Assembly: GCF_056746865.1 (NCBI RefSeq)
Contig: NZ_CM163382.1
Reading direction: 5' to 3' (one strand)
Length of the DNA stretch: 64,000 nucleotides
Part shown: in pieces, positions 528 to 12,136 of the stretch
Numbering within the stretch: the stretch's first letter is position 1
How the letters are laid out: every line of letters begins with the position of its first letter
Translations under genes and position numbers: made by a program
Notes under the pieces: generated by a model
Seen by the model: only the letters and a program-made list of their open reading frames with translations
Databases searched by the model: none
What the model was told of the DNA's origin: nothing

Positions 528-1055
528 TTATTTGCCTTTTTTAATAACCTCAATGGTGCTTGCCACAACACCTTCCAGCGGTTGATCGATATCCACCACC
601 AGTACATCGGTTTCGTCCGCACCCGGCTCCTGCAGCGTTTCAAACTGCGTCACCAACATTTGGGTTTTAAAGAAATGGCCTTTGCGCGCTTTCAGGCGGC
701 TTTCAATCACATCAAAATCGCCTTTCAGGTAGATGAACGAGAGATTCGGATTACCTTCACGCAGCAAGTCGCGATAGTGTTTTTTCAGTGCAGAACAGAC
801 GATCAGCGACACTTTATTGGTGCGCTGCATAGCAAACGCGGCGTCGTTCAGCGCCTGCAACCACGGTTTGCGATCGTCGTCATTCAGCGGTTCACCAGAC
901 GCCATTTTTTCGATATTGCGCCTTGGATGGAGGAAATCGCCATCAAGAAACGCGGCATGAAGTTGATGCGCCACTTCACTGGCGACCGCAGATTTGCCGC
1001 TGCCCGATACGCCCATCAAGACGTAAATGTGGTGATCATGGTTAGTCGTGCTCAA
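528..1055 (-). CDS. gntK: Gluconokinase (thermoresistant), TTG start
   Basis: ORF 528..1076; the product reads STTNHDHHIYVLMGVSGSGKS with a P-loop, and a TTG at 1055..1053 gives the 175-aa GntK length. Confidence 0.9.
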   Translation of the reverse strand: MSTTNHDHHIYVLMGVSGSGKSAVASEVAHQLHAAFLDGDFLHPRRNIEKMASGEPLNDDDRKPWLQALNDAAFAMQRTNKVSLIVCSALKKHYRDLLREGNPNLSFIYLKGDFDVIESRLKARKGHFFKTQMLVTQFETLQEPGADETDVLVVDIDQPLEGVVASTIEVIKKGK

Positions 1056-3108: not shown

Positions 3109-3230
3109 TTTTATTCGCCCCCTGAATGATTTCGATGGGCTTAGTGTGGACCCGATCCGCCTGGGATGATAGAGGGTGAAAATTGACCCCTCTGTTCAAA
3201 AAAATTGAACTATTCGAGGGGCCATCAAAC

Positions 3231-4268
3231 TTACTTCGCGAGAGTCACTGTGGAGGGAGAGGCTTGCTCAAATCCTCGTTCAAGGATTTCCAGATTGGTA
3301 AGAACTTCAGATTCCTTGACGTAATTTGGCGCACCGTTGGTGATGGTTTGATACAACGCATCATAAACGCGCCCGTAATCGCCCATCTCCGGCTTCATCT
3401 CTTCTCTGACCGTCACACCCTCGTCATTGACATACTCCAGCACACCGACCGAATCATCCGCTGCGAATCCCGGTTCGCCCGGCATAATATTGGCCTTGAG
3501 GCTGGTTTCCTGCTGGTCGATACCGTATTTAATAAACGAACCTTTCTTACCGTGAACGATAAATTTCGGATAATCGATTTTCACCAGATGGCTGGTTTTG
3601 ACGATGGCTTTCAGGTCGCCATAAAACAGCTGCGCTTCAAAGGTGTCGTCAGGATTGGCTTTATTACGCAGGCTGCGGATGTCATAAGCGACGTGATCCG
3701 GGCGACCGAACAGAGAAATAATCTGGTCCATCGTATGCACACCAAGACCATAGAACGCGCCATCCTGCGGCAGCCCAGGTTTGGTTTCTGCCACCGGGCG
3801 GTAATAGTCAAAATGGCTTTCCACTTCGACAATCTCTCCAAGCTTGCCGCTTTCAATCGCTTTTTTCGCTGTCAGGAAGCAGGAATCAAAGCGACGATTC
3901 TGATACGGCGTGACGGTCAGCCCTTTGCTTTTCGCCAACGCAAACAGCTCCTTCGCCTGGGCAAGCGTCGGGGTGAACGGTTTTTCGACCAGCACATTTT
4001 TCCCGGCTTCCAGCGCGCGCTTCGCGTACTCGAAGTGGCTGTCTGCATGGGTGCAGACCACAACCAGCTTAACATCGGGATCGTTTAGTACTTCGTCGAG
4101 ATCGCTGGTGAAATGGATATGAGAGTAAATGGGGGCCTGTTCTTCCGGCTTCGCATGGCGGCGAAAAATATGCGCGACATGCCAGCTATCCTTGCGGTTA
4201 AGTACATACGGCAGATGGTAACGGGTGGTGCTTTTGCCGAAGCCAATAAAGGCGCAGTTAATGACCAT
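3231..4268 (-). CDS. yhhX: Gfo/Idh/MocA-family NAD(P)-dependent oxidoreductase
   Basis: 345-aa ORF with an N-terminal Rossmann motif (CAFIGFGKSTTRYH); position matches yhhX. Confidence 0.85.
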   Translation of the reverse strand: MVINCAFIGFGKSTTRYHLPYVLNRKDSWHVAHIFRRHAKPEEQAPIYSHIHFTSDLDEVLNDPDVKLVVVCTHADSHFEYAKRALEAGKNVLVEKPFTPTLAQAKELFALAKSKGLTVTPYQNRRFDSCFLTAKKAIESGKLGEIVEVESHFDYYRPVAETKPGLPQDGAFYGLGVHTMDQIISLFGRPDHVAYDIRSLRNKANPDDTFEAQLFYGDLKAIVKTSHLVKIDYPKFIVHGKKGSFIKYGIDQQETSLKANIMPGEPGFAADDSVGVLEYVNDEGVTVREEMKPEMGDYGRVYDALYQTITNGAPNYVKESEVLTNLEILERGFEQASPSTVTLAK

Positions 4269-4390
4269 GATTTCGTCCTTTTTAAGGGGGTTATTTACAC
4301 CTTAGCGCAAAGCGGACGTGGTTCCTACTGGAGTGCGCATAACGAACACAAGCACTTCCCGTGGATAAATTGAAAACGAAAGATCAAAAA

Positions 4391-4480
4391 AAAAGCCAGC
4401 ACCCGGCTGGCTAAGTAATACTGGAAGCAATGTGAGCAATGTCGTGCTTTCAGGTTCTCCGCGAGGGTCTTCCTGATCGC
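4391..4480 (-). ncRNA. ryhB: RyhB iron-responsive small RNA
   Basis: The reverse complement reads GCGATCAGGAAGACCCTCGCGGAGAACCTGAAAGCACGACATTGCTCACATTGCTTCCAGTATTACTTAGCCAGCCGGGTGCTGGCTTTT, which matches my memory of RyhB and ends in a GC hairpin plus U-run terminator. Track ORFs 4302..4487, 4325..4540 and 4450..4665 overlapping it are spurious. Confidence 0.9.
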
Positions 4481-4481
4481 G

Positions 4482-4500
4482 AGACAATAATAATCATTCT
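4482..4500 (-). promoter_or_regulatory. Fur box at the ryhB promoter
   Basis: GAGACAATAATAATCATTCTC lies immediately upstream of the RyhB 5' end and resembles the Fur consensus GATAATGATAATCATTATC. Confidence 0.6.
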
Positions 4501-4602
4501 CATTCGCACTTGTCCAACACTTTTTGCAAAAAAAATGCATTTGACTCGCATTTGAAAGTCAATGATGTTGAAAGGGACATTTACCCCAAAGAGGACAAAG
4601 GA

Positions 4603-5091
4603 ATGAGTGAGATAGTGATACGCCATGCTGAAACGCGGGACTACGAGGCCATCAGGCAGATTCACGCCCAGCCGGAGGTGTATTGCAACACGCTACAGGT
4701 GCCTCATCCCTCCGATCATATGTGGCAGGAGCGACTCGCCGATCGCCCCGGCATCAAGCAGTTAGTCGCCTGTATTGATGGAATCGTCGTAGGCCATCTC
4801 ACCATTGACGTGCAACAACGCCCACGCCGCAGTCATGTTGCCGATTTTGGTATCTGTGTCGACTCCCGTTGGAAGAATCGCGGTGTCGCCAGCGCCCTGA
4901 TGCGAGAGATGATTGAAATGTGCGACAACTGGTTGCGGGTAGATCGTATTGAGCTAACGGTGTTCGTCGATAACGCGCCAGCAATTAAGGTCTATAAAAA
5001 ATTTGGATTTGAGATTGAAGGGACTGGCAAGAAGTACGCATTACGTAATGGTGAATATGTCGATGCGTATTATATGGCGCGGGTGAAGTAA
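4603..5091 (+). CDS. yhhY: GNAT-family N-acetyltransferase
   Basis: Internal ATG at 4603 of ORF 4510..5091 gives a 162-aa product (MSEIVIRHAETRDYEAI...) with an acetyl-CoA-binding motif (RWKNRGVASALM). Confidence 0.85.
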   Translation: MSEIVIRHAETRDYEAIRQIHAQPEVYCNTLQVPHPSDHMWQERLADRPGIKQLVACIDGIVVGHLTIDVQQRPRRSHVADFGICVDSRWKNRGVASALMREMIEMCDNWLRVDRIELTVFVDNAPAIKVYKKFGFEIEGTGKKYALRNGEYVDAYYMARVK

Positions 5092-5097
5092 GATAGT

Positions 5098-5123
5098 GCC
5101 CTTTTTCTGAGATGGAAAAAGGG
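5098..5123 (+). terminator. Candidate hairpin terminator after yhhY
   Basis: GCCCTTTTTCTGAGATGGAAAAAGGG forms a perfect 8-bp stem (CCCTTTTT/AAAAAGGG). Confidence 0.35.
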
Positions 5124-5326
5124 TGTCATTCAAAATCGGCATACCTTCCTTTAAGGTATTTATTTTCCCAATAAATATATAAGATTTACCTCATAATTAC
5201 GTCCTAAAGTGTAATATTTTATTTTTTAATATATACGCCTACAATTTCCTGGAGTAAATAAATAACAATTAACAAGCATAATAGTGCCATTGATAAAATA
5301 GCATGCCATAAAAGGACTTTTCATGG

Positions 5327-6439
5327 ATGAGTAATATTGTTTACCTGACAGTAACGGGAGAACAACAAGGAAGCATCTCCGCAGGTTGTGGGACTTCTGA
5401 GTCTACAGGTAATCGCTGGCAGAGCGGGCATGAGGATGAAATATTTACATTCTCACTCTTAAATAGTATTACTAATACGGGGCTTGGTTCACAGTTCCAT
5501 GGTATAACATTTTGTAAATTAATTGATAAAAGCACTCCATTATTTATTAATTCCATTAACAATAATGAACAATTATTTATGGAATTTGACTTCTATCGAA
5601 TAAATAGATTTGGTAGATGGGAAAAGTATTATTATATACAACTAAGAGGCGCTTTTTTATCGGCTATTCATCATCAGATCATTGAAAATCAACTGGATAC
5701 AGAAACATTAACTGTTAGTTATGAATTTATCCTCTGTCAACATCTTATCGCAAATACCGAGTTCAGCTATTTGGCACTCCCTGAAAATTATAACTGTTTG
5801 TTTTTACCAAATTCAAAAAACCAAACAAATAATCGTTTCAAAACGTTAAACAGCAAAGCTATTGGCAGGCTACTTGCTGCTGGTGGCGTATACAATGGGA
5901 ACATTGAAGGATTCAGAGATACTGCGGAAAAACTGGGTGGAGATGCAATAAAAGGCTATGATCAAATACTAAATGAAAAAACAGCGGGCATAGCGATAGC
6001 AACAGCATCTATTCTTTTAACAAAGCGTTCTAATGTTGATACATATACAGAAATAAATAGTTACTTAGGCAAACTTAGAGGTCAACAAAAACTTCTTGAT
6101 GGTATAGACATAATAGAAATAATATACATTAAGAGACCTTCAAAAGACTTAGCTAACTTACGAAAGGAGTTTAATAAAACTGTAAGAAAAAATTTTCTTA
6201 TCAAACTTGCAAAAACCTCCGAAGCATCTGAAAGATTCAACGCCGAAGACCTTTTAAGAATGAGAAAGGGCAATGTTCCTCTAAATTATAATGTTCACCA
6301 TAAACTATCTCTAGATGATGGTGGTACTAATGATTTCGAAAATTTAGTATTAATCGAAAACGAACCATATCATAAAGTTTTTACTAACATGCAATCACGA
6401 ATAGCTAAGGGAGTATTAGTAGGTAGACTGGCCCCCTGA
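5327..6439 (+). CDS. yhhZ: Hcp-family (T6SS tube-like) protein fused to a C-terminal HNH nuclease domain; 3' end replaced by the IS2 insertion
   Basis: N-terminal Hcp-like region followed by an HNH motif (NYNVHHKLSLDDGGTNDFENLVLIENEPYHK). The reading frame runs into the IS2 left end at 6424 and terminates after 4 IS-encoded codons (RLAP). Confidence 0.8.
   Translation: MSNIVYLTVTGEQQGSISAGCGTSESTGNRWQSGHEDEIFTFSLLNSITNTGLGSQFHGITFCKLIDKSTPLFINSINNNEQLFMEFDFYRINRFGRWEKYYYIQLRGAFLSAIHHQIIENQLDTETLTVSYEFILCQHLIANTEFSYLALPENYNCLFLPNSKNQTNNRFKTLNSKAIGRLLAAGGVYNGNIEGFRDTAEKLGGDAIKGYDQILNEKTAGIAIATASILLTKRSNVDTYTEINSYLGKLRGQQKLLDGIDIIEIIYIKRPSKDLANLRKEFNKTVRKNFLIKLAKTSEASERFNAEDLLRMRKGNVPLNYNVHHKLSLDDGGTNDFENLVLIENEPYHKVFTNMQSRIAKGVLVGRLAP
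6419..6423. repeat. 5-bp target-site duplication (GTAGG), left copy
   Basis: GTAGG immediately precedes the IS2 left end and recurs at 7755..7759 immediately after the right end. Confidence 0.85.
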
Positions 6440-6514
6440 ATCTCCAGACAACCAATATCACTTAAATAAGTGATAGTCTTAATACTAGTTTTTAGACTAG
6501 TCATTGGAGAGCAG

Positions 6515-6880
6515 ATGATTGATGTCTTAGGACCGGAGAAACGCAGACGGCGTACTACACAGGAAAAGATCGCTATTGTTCAGCAGAGTTTTGAACCGGG
6601 AATGACGGTCTCCCTTGTTGCCCGGCAACACGGTGTGGCAGCCAGCCAGTTATTTCTCTGGCGCAAGCAATACCAGGAGGGAAGTCTTACTGCTGTGGCC
6701 GCAGGAGAGCAGGTCGTTCCTGCCTCTGAACTTGCTGCTGCCATGAAGCAGATTAAAGAACTCCAGCGCCTGCTCGGCAAAAAAACGATGGAAAATGAAC
6801 TCCTTAAAGAAGCCGTTGAATACGGGCGTGCAAAAAAGTGGATAGCGCACGCGCCCTTATTGCCCGGGGATGGGGAGTAA
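6515..6880 (+). CDS. insC: IS2 OrfA (InsC), HTH transposase subunit
   Basis: [53 protein letters not shown]..., 121 aa from the internal ATG of ORF 6470..6880. Confidence 0.9.
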
Positions 6881-7743
6881 GCTTAGTCAGCCGTTGTCTC
6901 CGGGTGTCGCGTGCGCAGTTGCACGTCATTCTCAGACGAACCGATGACTGGAAAGATGGTCGCCGCAGCCGTCACTCAGATGATACGGATGTGCTTCTCC
7001 GTATACACCATGTTATCGGAGAGCTGCCCACGTATGGTTATCGTCGGGTATGGGCGCTGCTTCGCAGACAGGCCGAACTTGATGGTATGCCTGCGATCAA
7101 TGCCAAACGTGTTTACCGGATCATGCGCCAGAATGCGCTGTTGCTTGAGCGAAAAACCGCTGTACCGCCATCGAAACGGGCACATACTGGCAAAGTGGCC
7201 GTGAAAGAAAGCAATCAACGATGGTGCTCTGACGGGTTCGAGTTCCGCTGTGATAACGGAGAAAAACTGCGAGTCACGTTCGCGCTGGACTGCTGTGACC
7301 GTGAGGCACTGCACTGGGCAGTCACTACGGGCGGCTTCGACAGTGAAACAGTACAGGACGTAATGCTGGGAGCGGTGGAACGCCGCTTCGGCAACGAGCT
7401 TCCGGCGTCTCCAGTAGAGTGGCTGACGGATAATGGTTCATGCTACCGGGCTAATGAAACACGGCAGTTTGCCCGGATGTTGGGGCTTGAACCGAAGAAC
7501 ACGGCGGTGCGGAGTCCGGAGAGTAACGGCATAGCAGAGAGCTTCGTGAAAACGATAAAGCGTGACTACATCAGTATCATGCCTAAACCAGACGGGTTAA
7601 CGGCAGCAAAGAACCTTGCAGAGGCGTTCGAGCATTATAACGAATGGCATCCGCATAGTGCACTGGGTTATCGCTCGCCACGGGAATATCTACGGCAGCG
7701 GGCCAGTAATGGGTTAAGTGATAACAGGTGTCTGGAAATATAG
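6838..7743 (+). CDS. insD: IS2 OrfB (InsD), DDE transposase catalytic subunit, expressed as an OrfAB fusion by -1 frameshift
   Basis: 301-aa ORF overlapping insC in the -1 frame, with an integrase-core-like sequence. Confidence 0.9.
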
Positions 7744-7754
7744 GGGCAAATCCA

Positions 7755-7759
7755 GTAGG
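7755..7759. repeat. 5-bp target-site duplication (GTAGG), right copy
   Basis: Identical to 6419..6423. Confidence 0.85.
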
Positions 7760-7841
7760 TGAAAGCAAAATCACTCCCTGGGCCATTCCATCTGGCTCAA
7801 TTTATCCTCCCATGAAAAATATTATGGAACCCACAAAATGA
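7755..7841 (+). pseudogene. yhhZ: Displaced 3' end of yhhZ (last ~26 codons, ESKITPWAIPSGSIYPPMKNIMEPTK)
   Basis: Joining 6423 to 7760 (removing IS2 and one duplication copy) restores a continuous frame that ends at the TGA at 7839..7841, giving a 392-aa product. Confidence 0.75.
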
Positions 7842-8332
7842 TGACTAAAACCCAAATAAATAAATTAAAAAAAATGATGAATGATTTAGACTATCCATTT
7901 GAAGCACCGCTCAAGGAATCATTTATTGAAAGTATAATCCAAATAGAATTTAATTCTAATTCAACTAATTGCCTGGAGAAATTATGTAATGAAGTTAGTA
8001 TTCTTTTTAATAATCAACCTGATTATCTTAATTTTTTAAGAGCAATGGATGGATTCGAAGTTAATGGATTACGATTATTTAGCCTCTCGATTCCAGAACC
8101 TTCAGTTAAAAACCTTTTTACCGTAAATGAATTTTATAGAAATAATGATGATTTCATAAACCCTGATCTACAAGAACGGTTAGTGATCGGGGATGATAGC
8201 ATTTCAATATTTACTTATGACATTAAAAGTAACTTTTTTGAAATTAGAGATAATATTGGCACCGAAAATATATTCAGTTCGTTTAGTGATTTCTCTTCAT
8301 TCTTAAACGAAATCATGGACAGTTGTTCATAA
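7838..8332 (+). CDS. yrhA: Putative immunity protein for the YhhZ nuclease (SUKH/Smi1-Knr4-like)
   Basis: 164-aa ORF whose ATG overlaps the reconstructed yhhZ stop (ATGA), indicating translational coupling; it carries an ...FLRAMDGFEVNGLRLFSL... motif reminiscent of SUKH immunity proteins. The name is assigned from position. Confidence 0.6.
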   Translation: MMTKTQINKLKKMMNDLDYPFEAPLKESFIESIIQIEFNSNSTNCLEKLCNEVSILFNNQPDYLNFLRAMDGFEVNGLRLFSLSIPEPSVKNLFTVNEFYRNNDDFINPDLQERLVIGDDSISIFTYDIKSNFFEIRDNIGTENIFSSFSDFSSFLNEIMDSCS

Positions 8333-8543
8333 TAATCAAAAGGTAACAAAAATCATTGTAAACCATGCCATCTTTTTAGAGATTACCAGCAGAAAATTCC
8401 TTGTTCGAAACTTAGCAATGCAAGCTATGGAAAAACTTACAACGGAACTACACTCCTTAAGTGAGATGGACCGAAGACATGTAATCTCTATTTTAGCCGA
8501 AATAGCTAATGGCTATGATGATTTTAGTGACATGTTGATTTAG
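8331..8543 (+). pseudogene. Start-less open frame / gene remnant (...LAMQAMEKLTTELHSLSEMDRRHVISILAEIANGYDDFSDMLI)
   Basis: About 70 sense codons are open with the first ATG only at 8418; the frame differs from yrhA and the region is AT-rich. Confidence 0.3.
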
Positions 8544-8566
8544 TTAGAACTTCACCCGAATCATAA

Positions 8567-8746
8567 GATTCTGATATCTTAAATAAGAAAATCCCGTTCG
8601 ACGTTCTGAAAAAGAAATCACAAAATATTAGCAGATACTTATTTCGTGACTGTATATTATCCGATGAACTTTTTTCAAAACCAGCATTTAATAATATATT
8701 TGACGAAGATGAACGCGTCTTTTCTCAAAGTATAACGCAAGAATAA
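8567..8746 (+). pseudogene. Start-less open frame / gene remnant (...FRDCILSDELFSKPAFNNIFDEDERVFSQSITQE)
   Basis: 59 open codons with no in-frame ATG, ending at the TAA at 8744..8746. Confidence 0.3.
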
Positions 8747-8781
8747 TAATATAACGATCAACAATAATATTTATTATAATT

Positions 8782-9066
8782 ATGATTACTTATCACGACG
8801 CATTCGCGAAAGCGAACCATTACCTTGATGATGCAGATCTCGCCGTCGTCATTACTCTACATGGACGCTTTAGCCAGGGCTGGTATTTCTGTTTCGAAGC
8901 ACGAGAATTTCTCGAAACTGGTGATGAGGCCGCGCGTTTATCCGGTAACGCACCTTTTATTATTGATAAAGACAGTGGTGAAATTCATTCCCTTGGAACG
9001 GCAAAGCCGCTGGAAGAATATCTACAGGATTATGAAATAAAAAAGGCTACCTTCGGCTTGCCCTGA
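8782..9066 (+). CDS. yrhB: Small YrhB-family protein
   Basis: 94-aa ORF (MITYHDAFAKANHYLDDADLAVVITLHGRFSQGWYFCFEAREF...) located upstream of ggt as in E. coli. Confidence 0.8.
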   Translation: MITYHDAFAKANHYLDDADLAVVITLHGRFSQGWYFCFEAREFLETGDEAARLSGNAPFIIDKDSGEIHSLGTAKPLEEYLQDYEIKKATFGLP

Positions 9067-9103
9067 CAATACGGCCCTCTTCCCACGAAGAGGGCCGCTA
9101 ACC

Positions 9104-10846
9104 TTAATACCCCGCCGTTAAATCATCCACCGAGCGCGGATCGGATGCACCGTACAGCTCACCGTCCGGCCCAACCATAATGCTTTGTGTACTGCCCATC
9201 GCCTCTTTCAGCGCCACTTTCTGACCTTTTGCTTCCAGCAGCTTGAGCGTATCCGGGCTAAACCCTTTTTCGACACGCAGCTCGTCCGGCAACCATTGAT
9301 GGTGGAAACGCGGTGCATTGGTCGCTTCAGCGACATTCATGCCATAATCGATGCTATTCACCACCATTTGCAGCACGGTGGTAATAATCCGACTCCCGCC
9401 AGGGCTACCGGTAACCAGCCAGGTTTTACCGTCTTTCACCACAATGGTTGGTGACATCGACGACAGCGGGCGTTTGTTCGGCCCGACCGCGTTGGCATCA
9501 CCGCCCACCAGCCCGTAAACGTTCGGTACGCCCGGTTTGGCGGAGAAATCATCCATCTGGTTATTAAGCAGAATACCGCTCTCGCCCGCGACAATGCCCG
9601 TACCGAAGGTGGTGTTCAGCGTATAGGTCACCGCCACCGCGTTGCCGTCTTTATCCACCACTGAGTAATGGGTAGTTTGATTACTCTCATAAGGCGCAAG
9701 CTTGCCGGGGCGAATTTCGCTGGATGGCTTCGCTTTATTGATATCAATTTGATCGGCAATAGATTTGGCATAGGCTTTATTGGTCAGCGCCTGCCACGGG
9801 ACTTTCACAAAATCCGGATCGCCAAGATATTCCGAGCGGTCGGCGTAGGCGTATTTCTCCGCTTCTGCCATGATTTGCATCGCATCGGCGCTGCCAAAGC
9901 CGTATTTCTGCATATCGAAGTTTTCCAGGATATTGAGGATCTGCACGATATGAATCCCACCGGAAGATGGCGGTGGCATCGAGTAAACCTGATACCCGCG
10001 ATATTCGCCGCTAATCGGTGTACGTTCGACCGCTTTATACGCCGCTAAATCTTCTTTAGTGATCAAGCCACCGTTTTTCTGCATCTCCTGAGCGATCTGC
10101 TCCGCTATTGTGCCTTTGTAGAATTCGTCCGGGCCGTTTTCGGCAATCATCTCCAGGCTCTTTGCCAGGTTCGCCTGCACCAGCTTGTCGCCCTTTTTCA
10201 GCGGCGCGCCCTCTTTCCAGAAGATAGCCTTGCTGTTTTCGTGATTCGGCAACACTTCGCTACCGTAGGTTTTGAGATCGTCAGCCAGCGCGTCATTAAC
10301 GATAAAACCATCGCGTGCCAGTTTAAACGCCGGCTGCACCACTTTATTTAACGGCATGGTGCCGTACTTCTCCAGCGCCAGCGAGAAACCTGCGACCGTA
10401 CCTGGCGTACCGGAGGCCAGATGCGAAGTGAGTGATTTTTTGCTGTCCGGGTTGCCCTGGTCATCGAGGAACATATCGCGGGTCGCTTTGGCGGGTGCCA
10501 TTTCGCGGAAATCGATAGCGGTGGTATTGCCATTTTTCGAGCGGATCAGCATAAAACCACCACCGCCCAGATTCCCTGCCTGCGGATGCGTTACCGCCAG
10601 CGCGTAGCCCACAGCCACGGCGGCATCAACGGCATTCCCGCCCTCCTTGAGGATATCCACCCCCACCTGAGTGGCAGTAGCATCTACAGACGCCACCATC
10701 CCCTGTTTCGCGCGTACCGGATGGAAGACATCTTCCTCCACGCCATAAGAAACAGGTGGCGGAGGAGGCGCGGCGGAGGCGCTAAAACAACTTCCTGAGA
10801 GCAGAGCAGCAATGGCCACCCGGCGTAAAAACGTCGGTTTTATCAT
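9104..10846 (-). CDS. ggt: Gamma-glutamyltranspeptidase (periplasmic)
   Basis: Internal start MIKPTFLRRVAIAALLSGSCFSA (signal peptide) gives 580 aa; the catalytic Thr motif (TTHYSVVD) is present. Confidence 0.92.
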   Translation of the reverse strand: MIKPTFLRRVAIAALLSGSCFSASAAPPPPPVSYGVEEDVFHPVRAKQGMVASVDATATQVGVDILKEGGNAVDAAVAVGYALAVTHPQAGNLGGGGFMLIRSKNGNTTAIDFREMAPAKATRDMFLDDQGNPDSKKSLTSHLASGTPGTVAGFSLALEKYGTMPLNKVVQPAFKLARDGFIVNDALADDLKTYGSEVLPNHENSKAIFWKEGAPLKKGDKLVQANLAKSLEMIAENGPDEFYKGTIAEQIAQEMQKNGGLITKEDLAAYKAVERTPISGEYRGYQVYSMPPPSSGGIHIVQILNILENFDMQKYGFGSADAMQIMAEAEKYAYADRSEYLGDPDFVKVPWQALTNKAYAKSIADQIDINKAKPSSEIRPGKLAPYESNQTTHYSVVDKDGNAVAVTYTLNTTFGTGIVAGESGILLNNQMDDFSAKPGVPNVYGLVGGDANAVGPNKRPLSSMSPTIVVKDGKTWLVTGSPGGSRIITTVLQMVVNSIDYGMNVAEATNAPRFHHQWLPDELRVEKGFSPDTLKLLEAKGQKVALKEAMGSTQSIMVGPDGELYGASDPRSVDDLTAGY

Positions 10847-10965
10847 CGTTATTCTCCAGAGATTAAGGGGCAACCCCAGCTAAGCCTGGTATATAACTCT
10901 GAATTAATCATCGTTTTGCCGGGAAGCGAGTAAACTTAAAGGATATCTTCAGAGGAGGATACGCG

Positions 10966-11406
10966 ATGAAACGACTTCTGATTCTTACGGCACTCCTGCC
11001 GTTTGTCGGCTTTGCACAGCCCATTAATACTCTGAACAACCCCAACCAGCCGGGATATCAGATCCCCAGCCAGCAGCGGATGCAAACCCAAATGCAAACG
11101 CAGCAAATCCAGCAAAAAGGGATGCTGAATCAGCAACTGAAAACGCAAACGCAGCTGCAACAACAGCATTTAGAAAACCAGATAAACAATAATTCTCAGC
11201 GGGTGTTGCAGTCACAGCCGGGGGAGCGAAATCCCGCCCGGCAGCAAATGCTGCCCAACACCAATGGCGGGATGTTAAACAGCAACCGTAATCCGGATAG
11301 TTCGTTGAATCAGCAGCATATGTTGCCGGAGAGGAGAAACGGCGACATGCTGAATCAGCCCGGCACGCCGCAGCCTGATATACCGTTGAAAACTATTGGG
11401 CCGTAA
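10966..11406 (+). CDS. yhhA: Secreted Q/N-rich protein YhhA (DUF2756)
   Basis: 146-aa ORF with a signal peptide and Gln-rich low-complexity sequence. Confidence 0.8.
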
Positions 11407-12136
11407 AGTTCGGACCAATCACATCAATCGCATCGGTACAGATGCAATCCACGCCCCAGCGCAGCAACTCTGCCGCGCGCTGGGGTTTATTGACGGTATA
11501 AACCAGAATCCGTAATCCGGCGTCTTTCAACTGCATCACTCGCGCTTTATCGAGCAACTTATGATTGAGATGAATAGAGACGCAGCCCAGCCGCGCGGTC
11601 AGTTCTCGCCAGTCGTCGCGCCACTCATCAAGCAATAAACCGCGCGGCAGTTCTGGTACTGCTTGTTGCGCGGCTTCTAAAGCATCAATCTCAAACGATG
11701 ACAGCAGCGGCGACGTCATACCAGCCCACAGTTCGCGTGCAGCCAGCGCCACCATTTTGCCCGTTAATGGCCCGGTGCCAGTGGTGGGCTTGATTTCGAT
11801 ATTCGCCATCATCCCGTGTTCACGACAGCGTTCCGCCACCTGCGAAAGCAACGGCAGCGGCTCACCTTTAAACGCTTTGCTGTACCAACTGCCCGCATCC
11901 ACGCGCAGTAAATCCTGCCAGTTCAGTTCACCCGCGACGCCCCAGCCGTTGCTGGTGCGTTCGAGATTGTCGTCATGGAGCAAGAAGATCTCGCCATCCT
12001 TCGATAACTTCGCGTCAAATTCGATCATCTTATGACCGTATTTTGCCCCCACGTCGATTGCCGCCAGGGTGTTCTCCGGGGCCAGTTTACCGCCGCCACG
12101 ATGGGCGACGATGCGGGGATAAGGCCAGTTACTCAT
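11393..12136 (-). CDS. ugpQ: Glycerophosphodiester phosphodiesterase (cytoplasmic)
   Basis: 247-aa ORF with the GDPD motif (IVAHRGGG...ENT); last gene of the ugp operon. Confidence 0.92.

Follow-up and report, generated by a model that had tools for sequence, protein, structure and literature searches.

The question raised by this locus is what is encoded in the gap between yhhX and yhhY, across which three overlapping open reading frames (ORFs) are listed, and where the original prediction had placed the small RNA RyhB with its intrinsic terminator and an upstream Fur-box-like site, treating the three frames as spurious. RyhB drives the iron-sparing response of E. coli and is among the best-studied bacterial sRNAs. 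The DNA analyzed is a single stretch of 64 kb, referred to here as the window, and the features of the locus are collected in Table 1. It is almost certain that the minus strand carries ryhB at this position, a 90–95-nt Hfq-dependent sRNA, and that the three ORFs lying over it are chance frames which encode nothing.

Table 1. Features of the ryhB locus and its flanks, in window coordinates.
Feature	Position or length	Strand	Basis and remarks
ryhB gene	4480..4386	-	95 nt, from transcription start G 4480 to end of U9 tail 4386; 100% identity to K-12
RF00057-covered part of RyhB	4451..4387	-	Covariance model
Transcription start, G of GCGATCAGG	4480	-	Read directly from the sequence
27-nt core GCACGACATTGCTCACATTGCTTCCAG	4447..4421	-	Holds the target-pairing region; identical to K-12
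A/U-rich linker of RyhB	Between core and terminator hairpin	-	Sequence read directly
Intrinsic terminator hairpin	4412..4394	-	7-bp GC-rich stem, 5-nt loop; terminator scan, same hairpin in the MFE fold
U9 tract	4394..4386	-	With the hairpin, the Hfq-binding 3' module
Sigma-70 promoter of ryhB	4516..4487	-	Consensus scan, 10/12 matches
-35 TGGACA	4516..4511	-	Promoter scan
Spacer between -35 and -10	18 nt	-	Promoter scan
-10 TATTAT	4492..4487	-	Promoter scan; start site 7 nt downstream
Fur box GACAATAATAATCATTCTC	4483..4501		16/19 against consensus GATAATGATAATCATTATC, 3 mismatches
ORF 1, 61 aa, TTG start 4487..4485	4302..4487	-	ORF list; spans the whole sRNA and terminator
ORF 2, 71 aa, ATG at 4540	4325..4540	-	ORF list; runs through promoter, Fur box, RyhB and terminator
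ORF 3, 71 aa, GTG start	4450..4665	-	ORF list; antisense to the yhhY 5' end, crosses the intergenic region
yhhX, GFO/IDH/MocA oxidoreductase	3231..4268	-	Pfam PF01408 and PF02894; annotated yhhX in K-12 and 042
yhhY, GNAT N-acetyltransferase, divergent flank	4603..5091	+	Pfam PF00583, E 2.8e-18; K-12 annotation

Identification of the RNA rests first on an Rfam covariance-model scan, in which 4227 families were compared with the whole 64-kb window and RyhB was the sole family to exceed its gathering threshold. The RF00057 match covers the full model (positions 1–67 of 67) and scores 83.1 bits, the gathering score being 55, with an E-value of 3.6e-14, and the family was recovered at the same place in a permissive rescan of 4200..4700 (E 2.8e-16). 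Alignment to E. coli K-12 MG1655 gives the same answer: the gene is 100% identical to ncRNA ryhB (b4451, NC_000913.3 3580922..3581016), the aligned 95 nt coincide exactly with that ncRNA as annotated in K-12 between yhhX and yhhY, and identity is unbroken from a point upstream of the -35 element to the end of the terminator. All differences from K-12 lie outside this run, with one extra T in a T-run upstream (about 4528), one SNP and one 1-nt insertion in the RyhB–yhhX spacer downstream of the terminator, and one more SNP near the yhhX start. The location between yhhX and yhhY is the same in K-12 and in strain 042, that is, orthologous in Escherichia, and the gene is present as a single copy in the window.

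The original prediction had named the Rfam covariance-model search and the alignment to K-12 ryhB as its checks, and both have now been run, giving a strong RyhB match at the position and complete identity from the -35 element through the terminator. Its central statement, that a full RyhB with an intrinsic terminator is present, is borne out by the RF00057 score, the K-12 identity and the hairpin followed by nine U residues, as is its description of the RNA as a known element, this being K-12 ryhB b4451. The extent it had given, 4391..4500, needs adjustment: it covers the 90-nt form of the RNA, but falls five U residues short at the 3' end of the gene (4386) and one base short at the far end of the Fur box (4501). 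A strand had not been given; RyhB is on the minus strand.

Within the species the locus is nearly universal. The segment 4250..4650, comprising the gap and the adjoining gene ends, was found in 5424 of 5426 complete E. coli genomes, and the 126-nt stretch with ryhB and the Fur box (4380..4505) was likewise found in 5424 of 5426, at 99% identity or higher in 5377 of them. One divergent case is E. coli 23AR0151 (NZ_CP195448.1 310798..310932), where the ryhB/Fur-box stretch has 92.6% identity and is 135 nt long rather than 126 (9 nt longer); this could represent either an uncommon variant or a ryhB allele that has been disrupted.

These data bear directly on whether the match could be a decayed, non-functional relic or a chance resemblance, and the likelihood of this is considered vanishingly small. 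The only thing to be said for it is the unremarkable folding energy of the RNA, with an MFE of -24.1 kcal/mol and a z-score of -0.59, so that its stability is not above that of shuffled sequences. RyhB is thus not flagged by thermodynamics alone, and the fold energy is evidence neither way. A relic or chance match is refuted by the full-length covariance-model match, which is 28 bits over threshold, by the 100% identity to the functional K-12 gene together with its promoter, and by the distribution across E. coli at 99% identity or higher. With ryhB accepted as the intact gene, nothing in the sequence speaks against this reading; it is a known, textbook element, and the copy in this strain shows no sign of anything unusual.

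Upstream of the gene, a consensus scan recovered the ryhB promoter as the sole promoter-like site in 4200..4700, and it is identical in K-12. The Fur-box-like site expected from the original prediction is also present and is unique: it is the sole site with three or fewer mismatches in the 64 kb, and none of 100 shuffles gave one. It covers positions -3 to -21 with respect to the transcription start, including the whole of the -10 hexamer. The identical site in K-12 was scored at 25.2 bits at -15, and Fur was bound there in a gel shift (PMC2189734).

This arrangement suggests how the locus would operate. Bound at the box, which overlaps both the -10 element and the start site, Fe2+-Fur would block RNA polymerase when iron is plentiful; when iron is scarce, Fur would leave the box and RyhB would be made. 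Hfq would then bind the A/U-rich linker and the terminator/poly-U module, and the core would pair with mRNAs of non-essential iron proteins (sodB, sdhCDAB, acnB, ftnA and others) in the regions where their translation starts, an interaction expected to block translation and trigger decay by RNase E. Within the core, GACAUUGCU is what we take to be the segment pairing with the sodB start region. The mechanism is reportedly that set out by Massé and Gottesman in 2002 and in later work. From the 100% identity to K-12 we infer Fur repression, Hfq binding, expression and target regulation in this strain as well.

Further evidence that the RNA is the conserved unit comes from other genera. With one genome per species, exact matches to the core were found in at least 120 stretches from Enterobacterales, Aeromonadales and Vibrionales; as the homologous loci were collected by means of this exact match, conservation of the core among them is by construction and only the flanks provide independent evidence. 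Among the matches listed, 116 of the 122 loci with enough upstream sequence have a Fur-box-like site (five or fewer mismatches) ahead of the core, at roughly 30–85 nt and mostly 50–80 nt from it, and most loci also have a T-run starting about 26 nt past the core. Thirteen loci of other genera were sampled against RF00057, of which 11 scored above its gathering score, with scores of 68–87 bits; the two Vibrionaceae loci sampled, from Photobacterium and Aliivibrio, fell below it and have no T-run within 80 nt after the core.

Covariation is seen in the terminator. In an alignment of 74 distinct homologues from about 70 species, compensatory double changes occur at three of the seven pairs of the stem; two pairs each switch from A-U to C-G or G-C in 10 sequences. 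The pairs of the internal stem-loop in the Rfam consensus are able to form here, their columns being invariant by construction among core-matched homologues, and one pair flanking the core varies solely from A-U to G-U in the same alignment. The region of the 5' stem-loop is too divergent for reliable alignment across genera.

Among the matches listed, many genomes of Yersinia, Photorhabdus, Serratia, Pantoea, Hafnia and Pectobacterium carry a second copy of the RyhB core at a separate site, usually on a separate contig. Such paired copies are known from Salmonella, where RyhB-1 and RyhB-2/IsrE are the example. In several of these pairs (Yersinia, Photorhabdus, Serratia bockelmannii and Hafnia) the second copy has a T-run 2 nt after the core, without the usual linker of about 26 nt and hairpin, which is a paralogue architecture unlike that of E. 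coli. One of the two RyhB copies of Photorhabdus cinerea has a match to a group II intron domain (RF00029, 50.4 bits against 40; locus 654..729, minus strand) about 2 kb away.

Turning to the three ORFs, they exist exactly as they had been listed, all on the same strand as RyhB, and ORF 3 ends at a TGA within the RNA at nt 29–31. Frames as short as these are expected by chance when all six frames are listed, and their mere presence is therefore no signal. A search of Pfam gave no match for ORFs 1 and 3 and only chance-level matches for ORF 2 (E 0.18 or worse), and nothing better than E 0.18 was obtained for a 38-aa ORF on the antisense strand. Codon scores of -0.14, -0.24 and -0.11 (log2 per codon) for ORFs 1, 2 and 3 fall below the 5th percentile of 62-codon windows in true genes of this window (+0.16) and lie within the off-frame distribution. 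As a low-GC, probably horizontally acquired gene nearby, the yhhZ-like gene, is also negative (-0.18), the codon test alone cannot exclude a foreign gene and was used only beside the evidence from conservation.

That evidence is the instability of the frames. Through the indels described above, the K-12 counterpart of ORF 1 has 53 aa and a different C-terminus, that of ORF 2 has 95 aa with both ends changed, and that of ORF 3 has 54 aa and a different C-terminus. The frames of ORFs 1 and 2, the two that were followed across genera, open and close at unrelated positions and show no conservation beyond Escherichia; the ORF 1 frame closes at +38 (about 25 aa) in Citrobacter, Klebsiella, Enterobacter and Pluralibacter, while the RNA is conserved there. 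Given the Pfam results, the codon scores and the unstable ends, the ORFs are accidents of stop-codon spacing and are non-coding, in line with the original prediction. Elsewhere in the region, a 301-aa shadow ORF runs antisense to yhhX (3183..4088, plus strand), far longer than any of the three and, with a codon score of about 0, just as non-coding. In this part of the window, the length of an ORF says little by itself.

ORF 1 deserves separate consideration, as the 61-aa frame, or a shorter version begun at a UUG inside RyhB, might be a real protein, making the locus dual-functional in the manner of sgrS/sgrT. The exact 61-aa sequence is the representative of a 'hypothetical protein' cluster with members in E. 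coli, Shigella flexneri and E. fergusonii (APJ55853.1 and WP_269412715.1 are examples of the deposits), present on at least 1000 contigs, the frame is open for 53–78 aa in the Escherichia loci examined, two in-frame UUG codons are present at nt 42 and 51 of RyhB, and transcripts reading through the terminator exist (PMC4509938). However, the TTG start lies 5–7 nt upstream of the transcription start and is therefore absent from the sRNA transcript, RyhB contains no AUG, and the frame has no stop before the terminator, so that it could be completed only on readthrough RNA. The C-terminus differs from that of K-12 because of a 1-nt indel, the closure at +38 in other genera occurs despite the conserved RNA, the codon score and Pfam search of this ORF are those of non-coding sequence, and current RefSeq annotation places nothing there in 60 of 60 sampled genomes. 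A literature search returned no report of a RyhB-encoded peptide or of dual-function status. A protein product of this kind is held to be very unlikely, and ryhB is taken in what follows as a gene for RNA.

The public records show how the locus has been handled. Neither ORF 2 nor ORF 3 has an exact counterpart in a collection of about 15 billion proteins, though the intergenic sequence occurs in many genomes. In RefSeq, the 60 complete E. coli genomes that were evenly sampled have no annotation of any type over ryhB and the Fur box (4380..4505); compared with these and with strain 042, only the curated K-12 MG1655 record carries the ncRNA. Strain 042 has nothing annotated at ryhB, and its tags skip there from RS19725 to RS19735, as though a feature once annotated at this point had been taken out. 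The contention that annotation by ORFs misleads here is therefore right for the widely deposited 61-aa ORF, but not for the other two, which the protein collection lacks, and RefSeq calls none of the three. ryhB is in this sense a documented sRNA locus that has been mis-annotated or left unannotated, and the value of the observation is practical, as a caveat, with no new biology. Known sRNA loci should be masked before E. coli genomes are searched for conserved hypothetical small proteins or for empty intergenic regions.

The remaining question concerns yhhX, which lies 118 nt downstream of RyhB on the same strand. Vassinova and Kozyrev reportedly first interpreted the Fur-controlled promoter as belonging to yhhX, and it is conceivable that the promoter serves mainly for yhhX mRNA, with RyhB merely a 5' leader or an attenuated by-product. 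In the spacer between the two genes, the consensus scan detected no separate promoter for yhhX, in keeping with a published but unproven proposal that the ryhB promoter also serves yhhX. RNA polymerase is reported to read through the ryhB terminator frequently, and the extended forms do not bind Hfq (PMC4509938); furthermore, yhhX rises under iron limitation, and this rise is lost on deletion of ryhB and its promoter (PMC8896160). Against this, the hairpin and U9 tract form a strong terminator that covaries, and co-transcription of ryhB and yhhX was suggested in both papers but stated by both to be unproven (PMC4509938, PMC8896160). In addition, among the matches listed, the sRNA, Fur box and terminator are kept in genera with different flanking genes, and many genomes hold two copies on different contigs; the conserved unit is thus the sRNA and not its link to yhhX. 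A promoter serving chiefly yhhX is considered improbable, and such a reading extends the explanation of the locus as ryhB more than it replaces it.

A more elaborate version combines both possibilities: readthrough under iron limitation would give a Fur-controlled ryhB–yhhX operon with the sRNA as its leader, and a short frame, the tail of the 61-aa ORF, would be translated from the in-frame UUG codons of the core. Nothing supports the translated part, and the combination as a whole is judged very improbable. The spacer itself (4269..4385, minus strand) contains a second, weak terminator-like hairpin at 4363..4347 with a 1-nt indel relative to K-12. On the other flank, the true start of yhhY is the ATG at 4603 and not the TTG at 4510 of the ORF list.

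Several features lie further along the window. An insertion of the IS3 family (IS2-like) of about 1.3 kb occupies 6433..7746, with imperfect 33-nt terminal inverted repeats (6433–6465 and 7714–7746) and two overlapping transposase ORFs on the plus strand (6470..6880 and 6838..7743). Otherwise 100%-identical strains (118UI, 2017C-4173W12 and others) cover just 81% of 5100..12000 and therefore appear to be without the insertion. In relatives, the yhhZ-like ORF (5327..6439, plus strand) carries the annotation 'tssD: Hcp1 family type VI secretion system effector'; here it has 370 aa compared with 392 aa in K-12. As its final codons run into the left end of the IS, the gene seems to have been truncated by the insertion. 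Its very low GC3 (0.25) and negative codon score suggest a horizontal origin. A tRNA scan of the 64-kb window found none.

In comparing the locus to known systems, PrrF1/PrrF2 of Pseudomonas (RF00444) is a functional analogue, being a Fur-repressed iron-sparing sRNA. No homology to it is detectable: apart from RyhB, the permissive rescan of 4200..4700 gave only a PrrF match of 21.3 bits, far below the gathering score of 90 (E 0.27), which was rejected as arising by chance or from shared Fur-box and terminator features. The sgrS–setA locus resembles ryhB–yhhX, each having an Hfq-dependent sRNA whose leaky terminator is followed by another gene on the same strand (PMC4509938). It differs in that the downstream gene of sgrS is co-transcribed and SgrS encodes SgrT, whereas for ryhB and yhhX co-transcription is a suggestion only, and the literature search gave no evidence of a RyhB peptide. 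The RyhB homologues of other Enterobacterales, Aeromonas and Vibrionaceae share the 27-nt core, the upstream Fur box and the terminator about 26 nt past the core, while their 5' stem-loop regions and genomic neighbors are unlike those of E. coli. RyhB of K-12 MG1655 (b4451; formerly SraI; RF00057) matches the present gene in its 95-nt sequence, promoter, Fur box, terminator and yhhX–yhhY location, with no difference inside the gene and all differences lying outside it.
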